Positions 7,411 through 15,486 are shown, counted from the stretch's first letter. The stretch: 64,000 nt of DNA from Gloeobacterales cyanobacterium (GCA_038245785.1 JBBRSB010000007.1:87338-151337); one strand, 5' to 3'. A program made the numbers and translations. The notes: generated by a model not told the origin, from the sequence alone.

Positions 7411-9534
7411 ATGGCGTCTGAATTTTCTCCTCCGCGTAACAAATTTTTGAAGTCCTTCTTCAACCCCAAATTTCTCTTCTTCGCCTTGCTCATCTTTGGG
7501 GTCGCCTCATGGATCGGGATTACCTGGGATCTGCCCAGTGCAGACCAGATCCGCAACTATGTCCCAAAATCCAGCGTCAAAATTCAGGCTGCGGATGGCT
7601 CAACTATTTATAACGGCGGGGCAGGACCAACCCGTAGAGTTTCCTATCAGGAAATCCCCAAAGATCTGCGTGAGGCGATCGTCGCCACCGAAGACCGTCG
7701 CTTTTTTGAGCACAATGGAGTTGACTTCTTGGGAATTGGACGGGCACTGCTCCGAGATCTGCAATCGGGAGGGCTAAAAGAAGGAGGGTCTACAATCACC
7801 CAGCAGCTAGCCCGGAATTTATTTTTGACTCAGGAGCGGACGCTCTGGCGCAAACTCAAAGAAGCAGCCATCGCTGCGCGCATTGAACAGGATTTTTCTA
7901 AAGAAGAAATTCTGACGCTCTATCTAAACCAGGTCTATCTGGGTTCAGGAGCCTATGGCGTTTCCGATGCTTCTCTCCTCTATTTCAATAAACCTGTTCA
8001 GCAATTGAAGCTCACGGAGTCTGCACTTCTAGCCGGTTTACCGCAAGCCCCCAGCCGTTACTCTCCGCTCATCAACAAGGAATTGGCCCGTAAACGGCGG
8101 GATATCGTGCTGAAAAACATGGTGGAAGCAGGATTTCTTAAACAAAGTGACTACCTCAAGGCCAAAGCCAGGCCCTTAACCATCAATCCCCGGCCGCAAC
8201 TGCTTAAGAATCAGGCGGCCTATTTTACGTCCTATATCCAGTCCTTGTTGCCAGAAGTTTTGGGCACTACCGTTCAAGGAGGGCTAACCGTAGAAACCAC
8301 CTTAGACCCTTTCATTCAAGCCCAAGCCCAGAGTGCCTTGACCCGAGCCTTAGCTCGCAATCAAGGGCGCAAAATAGAACAGGGAGCGATTGTTTCGATA
8401 GACCCCAACACCGGTGAAATCAGGGCTTTGGTCGGGGGGGAAGATTTTCAGAAAAGTCAATTTAACCGGGCGGTACAAGCCCTCCGCCAGCCAGGATCTG
8501 CGTTTAAGGTTTTTGTCTATACCCATGCCCTGGAGACAGGCATTGATCCTGGCACCGTCTATGTGGATGAACCCGTCCGCTTTGGCAATTATGAAGTCAA
8601 AAACTATGACCGGGATTATCAAGGCCCGATGACCTTAGTGAAGGCTTTGCAGGAATCTCGCAATACCATTGCCGTCAAACTAATCGAACAAGTGGGAGAG
8701 CGGGAAACCATAGAAACGGCTCAACGGATGGGCATCAACAGTCCTTTACAAGCAAATCCAACCCTCGCCCTGGGATCTTCCGAGACCACGCTCCTAGAGT
8801 TAACCAGTGCCTACGGAACGCTGGCAAGTGGCGGTATCCGCACAGAACCAAGTGCTATTCGGCGCATCTTGGACCAATCGGGCCAAGTCCTCTACGAATC
8901 CAAACGCCAGCAGAACCAGGCTGTTACTCCAGAAGTAGCCTGGAGTATGACCAAGATGCTGGAACAGGTAGTCAAGGGAGGAACAGGCAGAAGAGCTAAC
9001 ATTGGTAGACCTGTGGCTGGGAAAACAGGCACCAGCGAGAACAATCGGGACTTACTCTTCGTCGGCTATATTCCCCAGTTAGTCACCGGCGTCTGGCTAG
9101 GCAACGATGATAGTTCTCCCACCCGTGGGGCCAGCAGTATAGCAGCGGGCGTATGGGGAGAAATGATGAATAAGGTAGCGAATAAACTGCCCGTCATCGC
9201 TTTTACAGAACCGAGTAACCTTTCTACTGACCTGCGTGACCGGGTATTGGCCGCAGCAGAAGGCCGACCCATCCCCTCCTACCTCCCGACCGACACAACA
9301 GGGGGCATTCCTCAGGACCAAGCGACAGAGCCGGCCCCTGCGCCTGTAGATCCCAACGTCGCCCCACCCCCTCAGGATTCAGTCCCTACAGACAATTCCC
9401 CTCATAACAGTGCGCCCTTAGATCCTTCTAATCCCCAATGTTTTGACCCTAATACTGCCTACAAAGGAGAGTCCGCCTGTGCGACGGGAGATGGCTTTGA
9501 TGGCTATCGGGAGCAACGAAACCGAAAACGGTAG
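7411..9534 (+). CDS. Class A penicillin-binding protein (PBP1A family)
   Basis: N-terminal TM, EDRRFFEHNG, GGSTITQQLARN, RKLKE; transpeptidase SAFK, SRN, KTG; Pro-rich tail. Confidence 0.93.
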   Translation: MASEFSPPRNKFLKSFFNPKFLFFALLIFGVASWIGITWDLPSADQIRNYVPKSSVKIQAADGSTIYNGGAGPTRRVSYQEIPKDLREAIVATEDRRFFEHNGVDFLGIGRALLRDLQSGGLKEGGSTITQQLARNLFLTQERTLWRKLKEAAIAARIEQDFSKEEILTLYLNQVYLGSGAYGVSDASLLYFNKPVQQLKLTESALLAGLPQAPSRYSPLINKELARKRRDIVLKNMVEAGFLKQSDYLKAKARPLTINPRPQLLKNQAAYFTSYIQSLLPEVLGTTVQGGLTVETTLDPFIQAQAQSALTRALARNQGRKIEQGAIVSIDPNTGEIRALVGGEDFQKSQFNRAVQALRQPGSAFKVFVYTHALETGIDPGTVYVDEPVRFGNYEVKNYDRDYQGPMTLVKALQESRNTIAVKLIEQVGERETIETAQRMGINSPLQANPTLALGSSETTLLELTSAYGTLASGGIRTEPSAIRRILDQSGQVLYESKRQQNQAVTPEVAWSMTKMLEQVVKGGTGRRANIGRPVAGKTGTSENNRDLLFVGYIPQLVTGVWLGNDDSSPTRGASSIAAGVWGEMMNKVANKLPVIAFTEPSNLSTDLRDRVLAAAEGRPIPSYLPTDTTGGIPQDQATEPAPAPVDPNVAPPPQDSVPTDNSPHNSAPLDPSNPQCFDPNTAYKGESACATGDGFDGYREQRNRKR

Positions 9535-9670
9535 TAAAAGCTTTCAAGTCCGAGGCTAATAACCGAACAAACTGATCTAATTAAAGGGAATAGTAATGTT
9601 GGCACGCTCACAGACACTGACCATAAAGAATTTCCAGGAGTACATCAGATGAGTAAGCACTATTAACTCT

Positions 9671-10519
9671 ATGGAAATGATCTTTGGGAGTGTAATCACC
9701 TCTGTCTTCTTTATATGCCTAGAAAAGCTTTTTCCTGCACAACAGCAAAGAACATTACGTGAGGGGTGGCATATTGATGTGGCCCACTTTGTTGTTAATT
9801 ATTTTGCAGTCCAGCTTGGTGTGATTCTTGCTATCCTACCCGTATATTTATTATCATATTTCTTTAGCTGGGCTATCCCTCCTGGGGTACAAGCAGTCGT
9901 TACCAGTCAGCCCGGATGGCTGCAGTTTTTGGAAGCTTTCCTAATCGCTGAAATCAGCTCTTACATTATCCATCGCTTAGTACATACTATCCCCTGGCTG
10001 TGGAAATTTCACTCAATTCATCACTGCAGCCCAGAGTTAGATTGGTTATCTGCCTTGCGATTCCATCCGATTGACTTGGTCCTAGAGAGGCTCTTTATTG
10101 TCGTTCCCCTATTTCTATTGGGTTTTAGCAAAGAGGTCCTTGAAGTATATGCACTGACTCGCACCTTTCAGTCTTTGTTTATTCATACCAATATAAATTT
10201 TGATTTTCCTATACTACGCTGGCTGATTGCAACTCCTGAATCTCATCGCTGGCATCATGATGAAGCACCTGAGACACAGAATAAGAACTTTGGGCAACCC
10301 TTTATTGATTTCTTATTTGGCACACTCTACCTTCCTAAGGATAAGAAGCCTGCAATTTACGGTGTGAATGAACTTGTCCTAGATAGCTACAAAGAGCAGT
10401 TACTTTATCCGTTCCAGGTAAAGAAACAGAGACAGAATCAGATTAGCCTGATAGAAAGCGCATCTCAGCAGAGTGAGCTTTTAGACTCTTCCATGTCCGA
10501 ATCTCCTATTCAGAGATAA
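9671..10519 (+). CDS. Sterol desaturase / fatty acid hydroxylase family protein
   Basis: His boxes HRLVH, HSIHH, HRWHH; hydrophobic segments. Confidence 0.88.
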   Translation: MEMIFGSVITSVFFICLEKLFPAQQQRTLREGWHIDVAHFVVNYFAVQLGVILAILPVYLLSYFFSWAIPPGVQAVVTSQPGWLQFLEAFLIAEISSYIIHRLVHTIPWLWKFHSIHHCSPELDWLSALRFHPIDLVLERLFIVVPLFLLGFSKEVLEVYALTRTFQSLFIHTNINFDFPILRWLIATPESHRWHHDEAPETQNKNFGQPFIDFLFGTLYLPKDKKPAIYGVNELVLDSYKEQLLYPFQVKKQRQNQISLIESASQQSELLDSSMSESPIQR

Positions 10520-10569
10520 GTCAATTTAAAGAAGCTTTCCAGTAAGCGATTTGCCCTGGAGCTATAGCC

Positions 10570-10989
10570 CTATCCTGGAAACGAGGAGAGAAAAGAGTAA
10601 ACCGGGTGACTATACTCTTTAGCTTTCATCAAAATAAGAATCCGCCGAGTTTTTGTAGGATCAGTCAAGTTGACATTGTAAGACTGAAAATCAAGATCGT
10701 AATAATTGATTTTCCAACAATAATCAACATCATCCTGCACAACTTTGCCAAAGTCATGCGCACCAACAGGATCATTCTCAGCAGTAAAGTCATCAAACTC
10801 CTGTACCTTGCTGATTAATTCACTGAGTTGCTCCTGAGGTAAATAACTTACTTCAGGAGTAATCCGCCATGGATGACCACTTTCTGAAATCAGAGTAGTA
10901 AGCGTCTGTAACGTAATTTTCCAATGAGGATTTTTACGCAACTGGTCATTCAGTTGGGCAATAGCCTGTGTACTGGAAGTAACGTCCAT
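10570..10989 (-). CDS. DUF3768-like protein
   Basis: IAQLNDQLR, FDDFTAENDPVGAHDFG, WKINYYD, DPTKTRRIL motifs. Confidence 0.75.
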   Translation of the reverse strand: MDVTSSTQAIAQLNDQLRKNPHWKITLQTLTTLISESGHPWRITPEVSYLPQEQLSELISKVQEFDDFTAENDPVGAHDFGKVVQDDVDYCWKINYYDLDFQSYNVNLTDPTKTRRILILMKAKEYSHPVYSFLSSFPG

Positions 10990-11252
10990 AAATTGCTCCT
11001 TTTAACGCAGATTTGTGGAATCAGGCGAAAAGTGGCTTATACAAATCACACAGTATCGACAGAAAACAGAAAAAAGCGGCAGGGTTGAAAGGGTAACCAA
11101 AAGGGAATTCTCTATCTTCAAGATACTGCTCAAAAACCATGGAACACTACTGATTTTCAGAACTTAACAGTGCGTGTTTAGGTAGATCGCAAAAGGCTCT
11201 GAGACCCTTCATCTCTTTATAAATAACGTTCAACCTTCAAAAATTGTCCATT

Positions 11253-11960
11253 TCAAAGTTTCGAAACAAGCTCAGCACGTCGTTCTTTCACAATTGTAGG
11301 AATATACCTATTTTTACTATCTTGATCTTCGAAACCAAGTCGCTGGTAAACATTACCACCTATACCGGGAAGAACTTCACCCTTAGCAGTGCGCTTTTCA
11401 TCCTTAGCAAAGTAGAAAAATTGAAACTTATTATATACGGCTTTTTCGAATTCATTCTTTAGCTTTTGTTCTGCTTGAGCATGAATTACAGGCGCTACTA
11501 TAAAGATTTTTTCAGGCTCAATACTTTGGATAAGATCGGAAAGATTTGTCTTGACGACACAAGCACCAGAAATAATAGACTTAACAATGATTAGATAATT
11601 CACATCTTCATTTGCTGGCTCTTGATATTTCCTAAGAATTGGTGCAACTTTTAAATCTTCCATCTCAAAAGGAGAAAAGTGTTGATTCCAGAAACACGCA
11701 AAAGAAATTTTTCTAACCTTACCTTTTAAGGATTGAAGTATGCCTTTAGCTAAAAAATCAGCATCTTCAACTGTGCATGCAAGATACACACTAGCCTGGT
11801 CACTACTAATCTGATCTAAAAGTGCATTACCTAAATTCAGTCCAATTTCAAACATAGCTTTCTTATACACTTCTGGCATCGCTTCTTTATTAACCAATGT
11901 GTCGAGTAAGTCGTGCACATTTTCGTACTGATAGAAGAGCTTTGAAAATTTCCTTTTCAT
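11253..11960 (-). CDS. Divergent uracil phosphoribosyltransferase (type I PRTase)-fold protein
   Basis: C-terminal DEKRTAKGEVLPGIGGNVYQRLG resembles UPRT (DE.L...GYIVPGLGDAGDRLFG); N-terminal LLDTL...PEVYKKAMFEIG helix; PRPP-loop position reads LIIVKSIISGA. Confidence 0.6.
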   Translation of the reverse strand: MKRKFSKLFYQYENVHDLLDTLVNKEAMPEVYKKAMFEIGLNLGNALLDQISSDQASVYLACTVEDADFLAKGILQSLKGKVRKISFACFWNQHFSPFEMEDLKVAPILRKYQEPANEDVNYLIIVKSIISGACVVKTNLSDLIQSIEPEKIFIVAPVIHAQAEQKLKNEFEKAVYNKFQFFYFAKDEKRTAKGEVLPGIGGNVYQRLGFEDQDSKNRYIPTIVKERRAELVSKL

Positions 11961-12856
11961 ATTAAAAAACTCTCTAGTTCCTCAAAGGATTTGGGTCTGT
12001 CTCTTCTAACAAGTTTTTGGAAGTTTGCAAATTTCGCGGTATCACAGCTATACGGTAGTGTGCCCCTGCCGAGCCCGTTTTTAAATTCCCAATGCAGAAA
12101 GCCTTTCGAGAAGTTATAGGTGAAATCCTGAATACTGTCAAGGATCTCTTTGGTCTCAGCTCCTAAGTCAAAGGCTACATTAAGGGGAGGCCGTATGAAT
12201 GAGGGGTTACAATCATGGGCTTTTGTCAACACTTCTAGAACAGAAGCATTAGACCTATCGCTTGAGCACCAAGCTCCAAGGAGTACTGTAGCAGCACACT
12301 CAATTTTATCTCTTTCAGGATTATCAGAACAACAGAGATACTCCACGGCTTTTTTGAATTCAGGTTCTTGATCAAGAACTTTCATTAGGCTGGAGTCATG
12401 ACAAAAGTGAATTACCTGACTATATAGTTTAATATCTTCAGGCATCTCATCGGTTAATTTGTCTTTAAGATTTGGGGAAGATACTACTAAGCTAACTTCT
12501 GATTCTCTTTCCTTTGATTGATTTAGCTCATACTGTTTTTTAAAATCATCAGATATTGACTTTTCGCCCACATCCCAGCTCACACTTGATTTGTTTTTGA
12601 GTTGATAATGTTGGAGAGGGCTTTTTGTTTCTCGATTTATGATTAAGTCATCAACAAAAGCAAGAATTTGACTAGAGCAAATGATACTTTCCTGGCCCTC
12701 AATTACTTCCTTTGATAAACGAGCCAACTGATAAACAGTAAAGAAGTTTTCATAGGTATTACCCTTAGCATTGCTAGCTCCACCTCTATTCTTATTTTTC
12801 AAATATTGGAGAGTTTCATCACCAAAAAGCTTTTCGATATCTTTATCTTCGTACAT
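11957..12856 (-). CDS. Cap4/DUF4297-like PD-(D/E)xK endonuclease-domain protein
   Basis: RGGASNAKGNTYE...FVDDL...HYQLK matches the GG..A..G..YQ / DD / QxK signature; start set at ATG 12856 (299 aa); ATGA overlap with next gene. Confidence 0.65.
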   Translation of the reverse strand: MYEDKDIEKLFGDETLQYLKNKNRGGASNAKGNTYENFFTVYQLARLSKEVIEGQESIICSSQILAFVDDLIINRETKSPLQHYQLKNKSSVSWDVGEKSISDDFKKQYELNQSKERESEVSLVVSSPNLKDKLTDEMPEDIKLYSQVIHFCHDSSLMKVLDQEPEFKKAVEYLCCSDNPERDKIECAATVLLGAWCSSDRSNASVLEVLTKAHDCNPSFIRPPLNVAFDLGAETKEILDSIQDFTYNFSKGFLHWEFKNGLGRGTLPYSCDTAKFANFQKLVRRDRPKSFEELESFLI

Positions 12857-12887
12857 ACAGACTGTGTTCGCGAGATTCCAAATTTGG

Positions 12888-14096
12888 TCACGGTTTGCGA
12901 TGGACCTGGGACCAAACTCTGGTGGGCAAGCCCCAGACATAGATAAAGCCTTCTGCTGCCTTGTGGTCGAAGATATCGCTGGAAGTGTAGGTCGAAAGCT
13001 CTTCGCTGTAGAGTGAGAGGTCTGCTTTGCGTCCCACAACCGTGCAGGTTCCGCGATGGAGTCGGACTCTCGCTGTCCCAGTTACAACCTGTTGGGTTTC
13101 TCGTACAAACCCATCCAAGGCCATCTTAAGCGGGCTGTACCAAAGGCCGTTGTAGACCAACTGGGCATAGGTCGCTTCTATCTGCTGTTGCTTGTAGAAA
13201 GTGACTTCTTTGGGCAAGGTCAGCGCTTCCAGTTCTTGATGGGCACGAATCAAAACCAGCATCGCCGGGGATTCATAGATTTCGCGGGATTTGATACCGA
13301 CCAAACGGTTCTCCAGCATGTCGATACGACCAACCCCGTTGTCTCCAGCCATCTGATTGAGACGGTCTACCAGTTCAACAGGGCTTATTTTTTCTCCATC
13401 CAGCGTTACTGGAATTCCTTGAGCAAACTGGATTTCAACATAGGTAGGTTCCGCCGGACAGTCATTCACTGACTTGGTCATGGCATAGACTTCTTCAGGA
13501 GGCTCGGCCCAAGGGTCTTCGAGAATGCCGCATTCAACCGAACGACCCAGAATATTCTGGTCGATGGAGTAGGCAGACTTTTTCTTTACGGGTGAGGGAA
13601 TGCCGTACTTTTCACCGTATTCAATCGTCTCTTGCCGCGAAAAACCCCATTCCCGTGCGGGAGCAAGCACTTTTAAGGTTGGGTCCAGTGCCGCAATCGA
13701 CACATCAAAACGCACTTGGTCATTGCCTTTGCCCGTACAACCATGTGCCACCGCATCACAGCCTGTCCTGTGGGCAATATCCACTAAGATTTTGGCAATC
13801 AAAGGACGAGCCAGTGCCGTTGCCAAAGGATAACGGCCTTCGTAGAGCGCATTACTCTGCAGTGCCGGGAAAGCATACTGTTCGATAAATTCTTGGCGCA
13901 CATCTTCGACGTAGGCTTCAGCAGCTCCTGATTTCAAGGCTTTCTGTCGGACAGCTTCCAGGTCCTCGCCTTGTCCCAAATCCGCTGAGAGCGCAACCAC
14001 GGCTTCACAGCCCCATTCGTTCATTAAGTATGGAATGCAAACAGAAGTGTCCACTCCACCGGAGTATGCAAGAACGACTTTTTTAGCCCGCCCCAT
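12888..14096 (-). CDS. argG: Argininosuccinate synthase
   Basis: [41 protein letters not shown]. Confidence 0.98.
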
Positions 14097-14153: not shown

Positions 14154-14405
14154 GTGGCTTCACGATCCCTAAAGCTAGGAGAACTCCATTCAATAAAGGC
14201 TTTAGAAGATCTGTGCAACCTTCCGCAAGTACGATGCCATGAACCAGTAGGTGACCGCTCAGGTCAGCTTTCAGTAGATTTGGATCATCCTTATCGTCTT
14301 ATCTTCGAGCCTACTGAACCAATTCCAAGAAAGACAGATGGTGGGCTCGACTGGGAAAAAATAAACTCCATTATGATTCTTGGAATAGAGGATACCCATG
14401 AGTAA
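14154..14405 (+). pseudogene. HigB/RelE-like (killer protein) toxin, apparently 5'-truncated
   Basis: C-terminal RCHE..GDRSGQLSVDLDHPYRLIFEP...DGGLDW...ILGIEDTH is family-typical; usual N-terminal part absent; overlaps antitoxin start. Confidence 0.65.
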
Positions 14406-15486
14406 TACTATTCAAAACCAGTACACACCGAATTACGTTGCACATCCAGGAGAAACACTTTTAGAAACTCTTGAAGCTCTTGGGATGTCTCAGGCAGATT
14501 TAGCAGATCGAACAGGTAGGCCCAAGAAAACCATTAATGAAATCATTCACGGAAAGTCAGCAATCACTCCAGAGACCGCACTGCAGTTAGAGCGGGCTTT
14601 ACGTGTGCCAGCCAGTTTTTGGAACAATCTCGAACGAAATTATCGAGAATTTCTAGCCAAACAGGAGGAGCAAAAGAAACTACAGGATCAAGTTGAATGG
14701 CTCAAGAAAATCCCTGTTAACGATATGAGTAAGCGAGGATGGATTCAGCTTTACAAAGACAAAATCCAACAACTTCGGGAAGTCCTCACCTTTTTCGGAG
14801 TTGTCTCTCCTGAACGATGGAAAGAAGTATGGGGAAACATGCCCGTAGCCTTTCGGAGATCTTCTGCTTTTGAGAGCAGCCCTGGTGCGATTACAGCCTG
14901 GCTCCGCAGAGGAGAAATTGAAGCTCAAAATATTTACTGTGCATCCTATGACGCTGGGAAGTTTAGGAAAGTACTACAACAAATCCGTTCTTTAACTACT
15001 GAATCTCTAGAATTTTTTCAACCGGAAGTAGTGCGTTTATGTTCTAAAGTAGGCGTGGCTGTAGTATTTGTACCAGAGCTTCCCAAGACACATGTTTGTG
15101 GCGCAACACGTTGGTTAAAGTCTGATAAAGCGCTCATTCAACTTAGTCTCCGCCACAAGACTGATGACCACTTGTGGTTCGCCTTTTTTCACGAAGCAGG
15201 TCATGTTCTTTTGCATGGAAAGCATGATGTTTTCCTTGAGACCGACAATAACGATGATCCCAAAGAGCAAGAGGCAAATGACTTTGCTGCGAACTTTCTA
15301 ATCCCTGAGGCGGAATTACGAAAGTTCACTAGGTCAAATCATCAATACACCAAAGTGGCTATCCAGAAATTTGCGGCCGATATTGGAATTGCACCTGGAA
15401 TTATTGTAGGGAGGCTTCAGCATGCCAAGCTTCTACCACAAACCCATTGCAACGACCTGAAACGTCGATTTACTTGGGCAGTATAG
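14398..15486 (+). CDS. higA: HigA-family antitoxin: XRE HTH fused to ImmA/IrrE Zn-metallopeptidase
   Basis: HPGETLLE, MSQADLADRTG, ITPETALQLE, FWNNLE; HEAGH and EQEANDFA. Confidence 0.9.
   Translation: MSNTIQNQYTPNYVAHPGETLLETLEALGMSQADLADRTGRPKKTINEIIHGKSAITPETALQLERALRVPASFWNNLERNYREFLAKQEEQKKLQDQVEWLKKIPVNDMSKRGWIQLYKDKIQQLREVLTFFGVVSPERWKEVWGNMPVAFRRSSAFESSPGAITAWLRRGEIEAQNIYCASYDAGKFRKVLQQIRSLTTESLEFFQPEVVRLCSKVGVAVVFVPELPKTHVCGATRWLKSDKALIQLSLRHKTDDHLWFAFFHEAGHVLLHGKHDVFLETDNNDDPKEQEANDFAANFLIPEAELRKFTRSNHQYTKVAIQKFAADIGIAPGIIVGRLQHAKLLPQTHCNDLKRRFTWAV

Follow-up and report, generated by a model that had tools for sequence, protein, structure and literature searches.

An unnamed mobile gene pair joins a predicted Cap4-type nuclease to a UPRTase-fold partner and probably serves in anti-phage defence

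The inputs known to gate Cap4-type nucleases are receptors for cyclic nucleotides, SMC ATPases, helicases and STAND ATPases. In CBASS, Cap4 (PDB 6vm6) is a nucleotide-gated nuclease. In Lamassu, LmuA (PDB 9ux8, 9nxx, 9hr5) is reported to be held by way of its C-terminal domain as an inactive monomer and to become active as a tetramer (10.1101/2025.06.23.660979). Hachiman (PDB 8zue) has two genes, and HamB is reported to constrain the nuclease HamA within a heterodimer (PMC10925250). Type I phosphoribosyltransferase (PRTase) folds also occur in phage defence, where the known examples (the retron III-A effector, ShosT, PsyrT, Ophion OpnC and DS-32A) are presented as effectors or toxins of one clade (10.1101/2025.09.30.679545; PMC12746101; PMC11961720). 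The gene pair described here brings a Cap4-type nuclease together with a protein of uracil phosphoribosyltransferase (UPRT) fold. It is a mobile cassette, real, widespread but rare, and unnamed.

The pair lies in a window of 64,000 nucleotides, the whole stretch of DNA analysed, from a host judged by its relatives to be a cyanobacterium. Gene 1 (11957-12856, minus strand) encodes a 299-residue PD-(D/E)xK nuclease of the Cap4/LmuA/HamA type, and gene 2 (11253-11960, minus strand) a 235-residue UPRTase-fold partner with a remodelled active site. An initial annotation had seen two AT-rich minus-strand genes joined by an ATGA stop/start overlap (11957-11960, minus strand), and both the ORFs and the composition agree: GC content is 36.8% for the pair and 47.9% for the genome, which places the pair in the lowest 0.6% of 2,982 genome bins of 1.6 kb. 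The motifs it quoted for each protein are present in the translations. The same 4-nt overlap occurs in 33 of 54 scored homologous pairs and suggests translational coupling. The mechanical ORF of gene 1 extends to a TTG at 13039, within the co-oriented argG; its start was set at the ATG at 12856, 31 nt past the argG stop, because homologues begin there. Neither a notable promoter or terminator on the minus strand nor a notable flanking repeat was detected, and since the pair shows no promoter of its own, it is likely transcribed by read-through from argG.

We give roughly even odds (a probability of about 0.5) to the reading that the pair acts in abortive infection as a mobile module, with the partner holding back the Cap4-type nuclease until its pocket senses an infection cue. 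Gene 1 would be a Cap4-type DNA endonuclease, and gene 2 a UPRT-derived pseudo-enzyme that binds the nuclease via its flexible loop and keeps it inactive. The rebuilt pocket, with an acidic pyrophosphate loop, a lysine PRPP loop and an intact glycine base loop, would sense the cue, for which the best candidate is a pyrimidine nucleotide gained or lost as the phage replicates. Pocket occupancy would shift the flexible loop, and the nuclease, freed or re-paired, would oligomerise and degrade DNA. This restraint-and-release reading is the most economical and follows the pattern reported for LmuA and HamA; the sequestration-and-release logic proposed for the pair is that of Lamassu, and Cap4 provides the parallel of a nuclease gated by a nucleotide. 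A role in defence is highly probable, and inhibition as the direction of the partner's control is probable. Release by loop movement is what we propose.

The predicted structure of gene 1 (pLDDT 93) has structural matches among defence nucleases only. The top five in VIA alignments (Z 9.3-11.3) are two Cap4 structures, HamA, Avs3 and LmuA, led by Cap4 6vm6 (Z 11.3, rmsd 3.9, 169 residues aligned, residues 27-219) and followed by HamA (Z 10.8), Avs3 (Z 10.2) and LmuA (Z 9.5); Foldseek also puts these four first. The nuclease core and helical subdomain occupy residues ~22-220 (12197-12793, minus strand), and the C-terminal domain residues ~222-299 (11960-12193, minus strand), with a helix, three strands and two helices by secondary structure. 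The C terminus had been put down as about 170 unassigned residues; residues 27-220 align with the Cap4, HamA and LmuA structures, and what is left is really ~78 aa. Residues 222-299 of the window protein are covered by no Pfam or PADLOC match and gave no usable match in the ESM Atlas, and G252, W256, G265, F276, P288 and E295 within them are kept in 51-54 of 54 loci.

Among the nuclease loci scored, E36 is present in 52/54 and D69, D70, Q85 and K87 in 53/54, one of the 54 (L024) being cut short and without the catalytic part. On these residues the E...D...QxK set is intact and nuclease activity is predicted. By profile the kinship is faint. Neither gene matches a family above cut-off in Pfam or NCBIfam, and PADLOC matches are only weak, that of the LmuA profile to gene 1 having an E value of 0.0035 over residues 22-105. 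Pfam Cap4_nuclease does not match the window protein and matches 3 of 38 homologues weakly (best E 0.0055), and a PDB sequence search with gene 1 returned nothing meaningful. Two nuclease homologues (P0218, P0227) carry N-terminal extensions of ~190-215 aromatic-rich residues; these are not fusions to a UPRT fold, a form found nowhere among the homologues already collected.

The pair is not a member of CBASS, Lamassu, Hachiman, retron III-A or the true UPRTs. Cap4 carries a SAVED domain, whereas gene 1 has only ~78 residues past the nuclease, too few for one, and the putative sensor of the pair is a separate UPRT-fold protein; the genome, 98% complete, has no SMODS match. LmuA shares the nuclease fold and contacts its partner partly via its C-terminal domain, as is predicted for gene 1, but it is held by the SMC sensor LmuB, and no SMC ATPase (LmuB) or LmuC is found nearby or conserved across 70 loci. 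HamA has the same nuclease fold too, but its partner is a helicase rather than a UPRT fold. The initial annotation had noted no adjacent cyclase, SMC or helicase, and the ORF and Pfam neighbour scan found no cyclase or SMC gene beside the pair.

The predicted structure of gene 2 (pLDDT 91) aligns with UPRTases at Z 18.0-22.7, and no other PRTase, not even PyrR, exceeds 12.3. Its best UPRT match (Z 22.7, rmsd 2.2) aligns 187 residues. Structural searches therefore returned both folds named at the outset, PD-(D/E)xK and PRTase. By sequence, a PDB search gave a weak UPRT match (E 0.0026) and the ESM Atlas gave unnamed clusters, one of them auto-named UPRT; in a viral fold library nothing matched at E 0.001. 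We also rejected the possibility that gene 2 is the housekeeping upp; the genome carries a normal upp elsewhere.

Gene 2 shares with UPRT (Upp; PDB 1xtt, 1i5e) the whole fold and the glycine-rich uracil loop, but the pyrophosphate-loop Arg, the PRPP-loop acid and the catalytic Asp are replaced. In alignment to the genome's own UPRT, an acidic TVEDAD loop (residues 63-68; 11757-11774, minus strand) replaces the pyrophosphate loop, and E65 aligns with its PRPP-binding Arg. In the PRPP-loop equivalent (residues 126-135; 11556-11585, minus strand), Lys127 replaces the acidic residue in a HMMER alignment to Sulfolobus UPRT, and in the uracil-loop equivalent (residues 197-209; 11334-11372, minus strand) Gly202 replaces the catalytic Asp of the genome's own UPRT. 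These positions were counted in 88 full-length homologues, 50%-identity cluster representatives from the best 150 of 376 profile hits, which are 21-53% identical to the query and were not found via motif patterns. E65 and D66 are each present in 86/88 and D68 in 88/88, with Arg at 65 in none; W91 is present in all 88; position 127 is Lys in 79 and acidic in 4; G199, G201 and G202 are kept in 83, 81 and 82, with Asp at 202 in one. The GTDB set of gene 2 proteins was found by motif patterns, so residue invariance there is in part a product of selection.

The gene 2 family has lost the arm, about 20 residues long, that serves UPRT as a dimer contact, and the helix-to-core spacing is 22-29 residues (88 homologues) versus 45 in the genome's own UPRT; the C terminus of gene 2 is extended by about 25 residues relative to UPRT. 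One study names Arg77, Arg102 and Asp198 of UPRT for PRPP binding and catalysis (PMC3570474), and another calls two glycines essential for uracil recognition (PMC4536494); both glycines appear to be kept in gene 2. The flexible-loop Arg of UPRT (Arg102) maps, by register only, to N92. An Arg is common in the family two residues later, where this protein has His; such an Arg at 94 may replace the flexible-loop Arg, and loss of UPRT chemistry is thus not completely proven. Judged by its residues, gene 2 is remodelled, not decayed, its UPRT catalytic residues having been swapped for near-invariant new ones. The initial annotation called it a degenerate UPRTase fold: the fold is borne out, and "degenerate" understates the case, as the altered positions are among the most conserved of the family.

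The invariant acidic triad and lysine resemble a catalytic constellation, and gene 2 could make or destroy a signal by new chemistry, for example as a metal-dependent hydrolase acting on PRPP or a pyrimidine nucleotide via E65/D66/D68 and K127, or could be a second effector like the ShosT and retron III-A PRTases. The retron III-A PRTase profile does match 18 of 34 gene 2 members weakly (best E 4e-5), and one report places retron III-A PRTases near uracil PRTases in its tree and has the Retron-Eco11 PRTase depleting PRPP (PMC12746101). Retron III-A has an RT and an ncRNA beside its PRTase and a Gx14PNNxP motif, however, whereas PNNxP occurs in 0 of 271 gene 2 homologues and no RT, DprA, radical SAM or NADAR gene is conserved beside the pair in the neighbours scanned. 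The defence PRTases, which share the type I fold of gene 2, have an acidic PRPP motif where it is described, unlike gene 2, where an acid stands at that position in only 4/88; in the texts consulted, none is reported to pair with a Cap4-type nuclease. Many genomes and phages carry the partner by itself, which makes toxicity alone unlikely. We rank an enzymatic gene 2 third among the alternatives and regard it as quite improbable.

Under the restraint-and-release reading, a nucleotide as the ligand of gene 2 falls slightly short of an even bet. A pyrimidine nucleotide is our guess because the base loop is kept, and PRPP is argued against because the pyrophosphate loop is acidic. The acidic pocket could instead bind a metal or a basic phage peptide. 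In L122 (genome G195) and P0249, a partner homologue with altered PRPP-loop residues is fused to a C-terminal region that has an HExxH motif and resembles an IrrE/ImmA peptidase. Five divergent partner-like proteins (P0351, P0364, P0377, P0382, P0390) have lost parts of the conserved pocket.

The two proteins are predicted to form a heterodimer, with a score of 0.90 in three runs and 0.00 for the best of three controls. Among solved complexes, 116 of 157 score this high, and among mismatched pairs 2 of 215 do, counts that apply only roughly to the alignments used here. Contacts agree between runs at no less than 98%, and the partner has a pLDDT of 91. Fold searches returned no solved complex of a nuclease with a UPRT-fold partner. 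On the nuclease side the predicted interface consists of helix 181-198 in the helical subdomain and strand 259-268 in the C-terminal domain, and on the partner side of residues 91-115, residues 138-145 and the C-terminal helix. Residues 91-115 (11616-11690, minus strand) are the main docking site in the interface list. From strand order and general knowledge of type I PRTases they would be the flexible loop, and the model thus has the nuclease docking on that loop. In PRTases the flexible loop closes on the ligand.

Mean conservation of gene 2 columns is 0.80 in the pocket (columns picked by hand from the UPRT alignment, and partly Gly/Pro), 0.40 in the interface and 0.45 in other non-interface positions. 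The pocket is therefore constrained beyond nuclease binding. This bears on the possibility of a plain type II toxin-antitoxin pair, in which a nuclease toxin and a labile antitoxin of borrowed fold would travel as selfish cargo with no sensing, since a simple binder needs no such pocket. Such systems are two-gene operons whose products form a complex, and the pair fits that description with a complex that is predicted only. The overlapping bicistron, the patchy spread (3/40 relatives), the plasmid copies, the one-sided loss described below and the many loci among housekeeping genes all suit this explanation as well. However, the toxin gene comes first, no DNA-binding domain was found in gene 1 or gene 2, and capture by phages suggests a role in infection. 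We place the toxin-antitoxin explanation second among the alternatives, and consider it improbable.

Homologues of the two genes stay together. In 63 of 70 GTDB gene 2 loci, nuclease sequence lies directly upstream on the same strand, 53 copies being full-length and 10 partial (contig ends, truncation or frameshift). The other seven have no nuclease by profile; two of them retain 41-52 C-terminal codons, and no swapped effector was found upstream of any of the seven. Pairwise identities of gene 1 and gene 2 correlate at r 0.95, with kin counted and so not independent. Searches from the nuclease side, in sets that overlap in part, found the partner directly downstream of the full-length nuclease in 7/7 cases in 401 cyanobacterial genomes, 2/2 in 397 Burkholderiaceae-family genomes, 2/2 on plasmids and 5/5 in metagenome contigs with room for it, a sixth ending too soon. 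A full-length nuclease without the partner was found in none of these four sets. For one N-terminal remnant of the nuclease (L094), the partner is absent from the surrounding 1.5 kb. Of the same 401 cyanobacterial genomes, 11 have the partner, and 4 of these have no intact nuclease. Although the numbers are small, such one-sided loss is the pattern expected of a toxic nuclease with a harmless restraining partner.

Control could also run in the opposite direction, with the partner as a ligand-gated receptor: it would oligomerise the bound nuclease and so turn it on, and free nuclease would be harmless. This would amount to a split SAVED-Cap4 with a UPRT fold as the receptor. By itself, it leaves unexplained why the full-length nuclease is never alone while the partner often is, and gene 2 is without the arm that forms the dimer contact in UPRT. 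The conserved pocket and the predicted complex are in line with an activator all the same, phage-borne partners could serve as a ligand sponge, and nucleotide-dependent oligomerisation is reported for T. gondii UPRT (PMC3570474). We consider activation unlikely, though first among the alternatives.

Copies of the partner are also carried by phages. Ten viral loci encode it: three with nuclease sequence upstream, two that start at the gene and five without nuclease. In four of these five, which are one phage lineage, the partner follows tRNA-Tyr, and all that is left of the nuclease is 22-27 bp from its 3′ end, an arrangement also seen in two more contigs that end inside the partner gene. No nuclease was found in five records of this kind, one of which is 78 kb and an estimated 86% complete. 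The phage partner gene sits upstream of a tail gene. At L096:5869-6708, L161:765-1604, L162:1-975 and L172:3739-3769, Microcystis-type phage contigs have it between two copies of a 42-bp promoter-like repeat, with a short scar left at that place in Ma-LMM01. Contig flanks are ~90-92% like the Microcystis phages Ma-LMM01 and MaMV, DNA similarity that is the only basis for placing the host; at the same place these isolates have ~30 bp like the nuclease 3′ end and no partner gene. The two phage versions, from one lineage, differ by only 3 nt, too little to show selection in the phage; both keep 32/32 family-typical residues. The fifth partner-only copy comes from a provirus; it retains 28 of these residues, and the usual start codon is absent. 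L098, in which the identical gene stands behind a full nuclease, may be a chimeric contig that joins phage sequence to a host element. Among the cellular proteins compared, the nearest full-length one is 68% identical to the phage-borne partner, and gene 2 had no match in 50,697 named phage records.

The phage-borne partner may neutralise the module as a putative anti-defence protein, or it may be passive cargo. There is a described analogue in the phage orphan antitoxin AdfN, which is reported to act as counter-defence against DarTG1, a neutralising subunit without its toxin (PMC11257639). AdfN is an enzyme that reverses a modification, whereas the phage-borne partner would act by binding. 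The initial annotation had offered three roles for gene 2. Making a nucleotide signal by UPRT chemistry is disfavoured, as the catalytic residues are replaced; sensing gains from the conserved pocket, and inhibition until infection gains from the one-sided loss and the partner-only phage copies.

In its most specific form, the restraint-and-release reading has a UPRT turned nucleotide-sensing receptor that would detect a phage-specific pyrimidine (dUMP or a modified dNMP, for instance) or the fall of a pyrimidine pool and release the docked nuclease, bloom cyanophages having taken the receptor gene alone to neutralise the module. We think it somewhat unlikely that all of this holds. A UPRT-fold gate, if true, would be a new input to Cap4-type nucleases and suggest that infection is signalled by pyrimidine metabolites, and if phage-borne copies do neutralise the module, they would provide a concrete defence/counter-defence pair in Microcystis-type blooms. 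At 1.6 kb the module is compact, and with defined residues for mutagenesis, a predicted interface and a candidate phage counter-measure, each step is directly testable.

A named system that matches the pair was not found in PADLOC 2023, Pfam, NCBIfam, the PDB or the literature searched, though supplementary lists or DefenseFinder models may hold one. The pair's terms are not mentioned in PMC13069673, PMC13434031 or PMC13586616, and the accessible portions of PMC12191111, PMC12904381 and the DefensePredictor preprint and paper contain nothing that bears on it; the UPRT entry of DefensePredictor is DS-32A with a NADAR partner.

The pair is found in cyanobacteria and proteobacteria, and a DNA search of E. 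coli genomes with a Marinobacter homologue, a weak test, found no match. No third gene is conserved with it: of the 70 loci, 9 is the most in which any other gene cluster occurs. Restriction-type genes adjoin the pair more often than they adjoin control sites, in line with the enrichment in defence islands that the initial annotation had proposed to check: 15 of 54 pair loci have one among the nearest three genes, compared with 0 of 37 arbitrary cyanobacterial control sites. These 54 are the loci left of 70 after setting aside nine redundant or fragmentary, five others and two without neighbours. In cyanobacteria only, the count is 10/25 versus 0/37 (Fisher p 3e-5), a p value that overstates the case because the categories (DNA methylase, restriction-type helicase, type I S subunit, Mrr, Sir2) were set by eye and nine of the ten positives share one inherited SNF2/methylase/DruE-like context. 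Looser defence- or toxin-like matches, in categories that were not fixed, occur at 4/37 control sites. At 39 of the 54 loci, and in the window itself, no restriction-type gene is among the nearest three. Hand-picked neighbours identified by PADLOC include type I, IIG and III RM, Hma, Dsr2 and HEC-02 with BrxH, and Gabija adjoins a partner-only copy.

In L002, L004, L006, L016, L029, L030 and L079, a DpdE/DrmD-like SNF2 helicase, an N6 methylase and a DruE-like helicase form a cluster, in which the slot between methylase and DruE-like helicase is variable and often filled by the pair. Nine cyanobacterial loci and one plasmid place the pair in this cluster, and it might be an accessory subunit of it rather than an independent system. 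We consider this very improbable and rank it last, given that such clusters cover at most 9/70 loci each, that the pair also occurs by type I, III and IIG RM, Hma and Dsr2 genes, and that it is found on a 10-kb plasmid without the cluster and, here, after argG.

Of 40 relatives, 3 have the partner; the two same-genus genomes searched, 94% and 97% complete, do not. In the window, the pair forms part of an accessory insertion beyond the argG stop (9533-12891, no strand assigned) that also holds a DUF3768 gene and a fatty-acid-hydroxylase gene. Sister genome G001 has the empty site, with argG joined by ~32 bp to the PBP gene that lies beyond 9533. The DUF3768 and fatty-acid-hydroxylase genes (9671-10989) are not conserved beside the pair elsewhere. 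In contigs from four runs of one study, the argG 3′ end is a variable slot: one contig skips 11057-12888, several diverge at 12895-12910, and another substitutes other sequence for 11975-12886, with 30 letters on the short side. Joints that vary and ends that stay loose fall at 12886-12910. In run X1, a 945-base contig shares both ends and has other sequence at 11975-12886, at a depth of 20.9 versus 11.7 for the matching allele; it is possibly a divergent nuclease allele or another gene before the same partner. On the other side of argG, at 14154-15486 (plus strand), lie a HigB-like small gene and an HTH-IrrE/ImmA gene, the latter PD-Lambda-2 B-like (E 4e-37). Sister genome G002 does not have these genes, so argG has an accessory insertion on either side.
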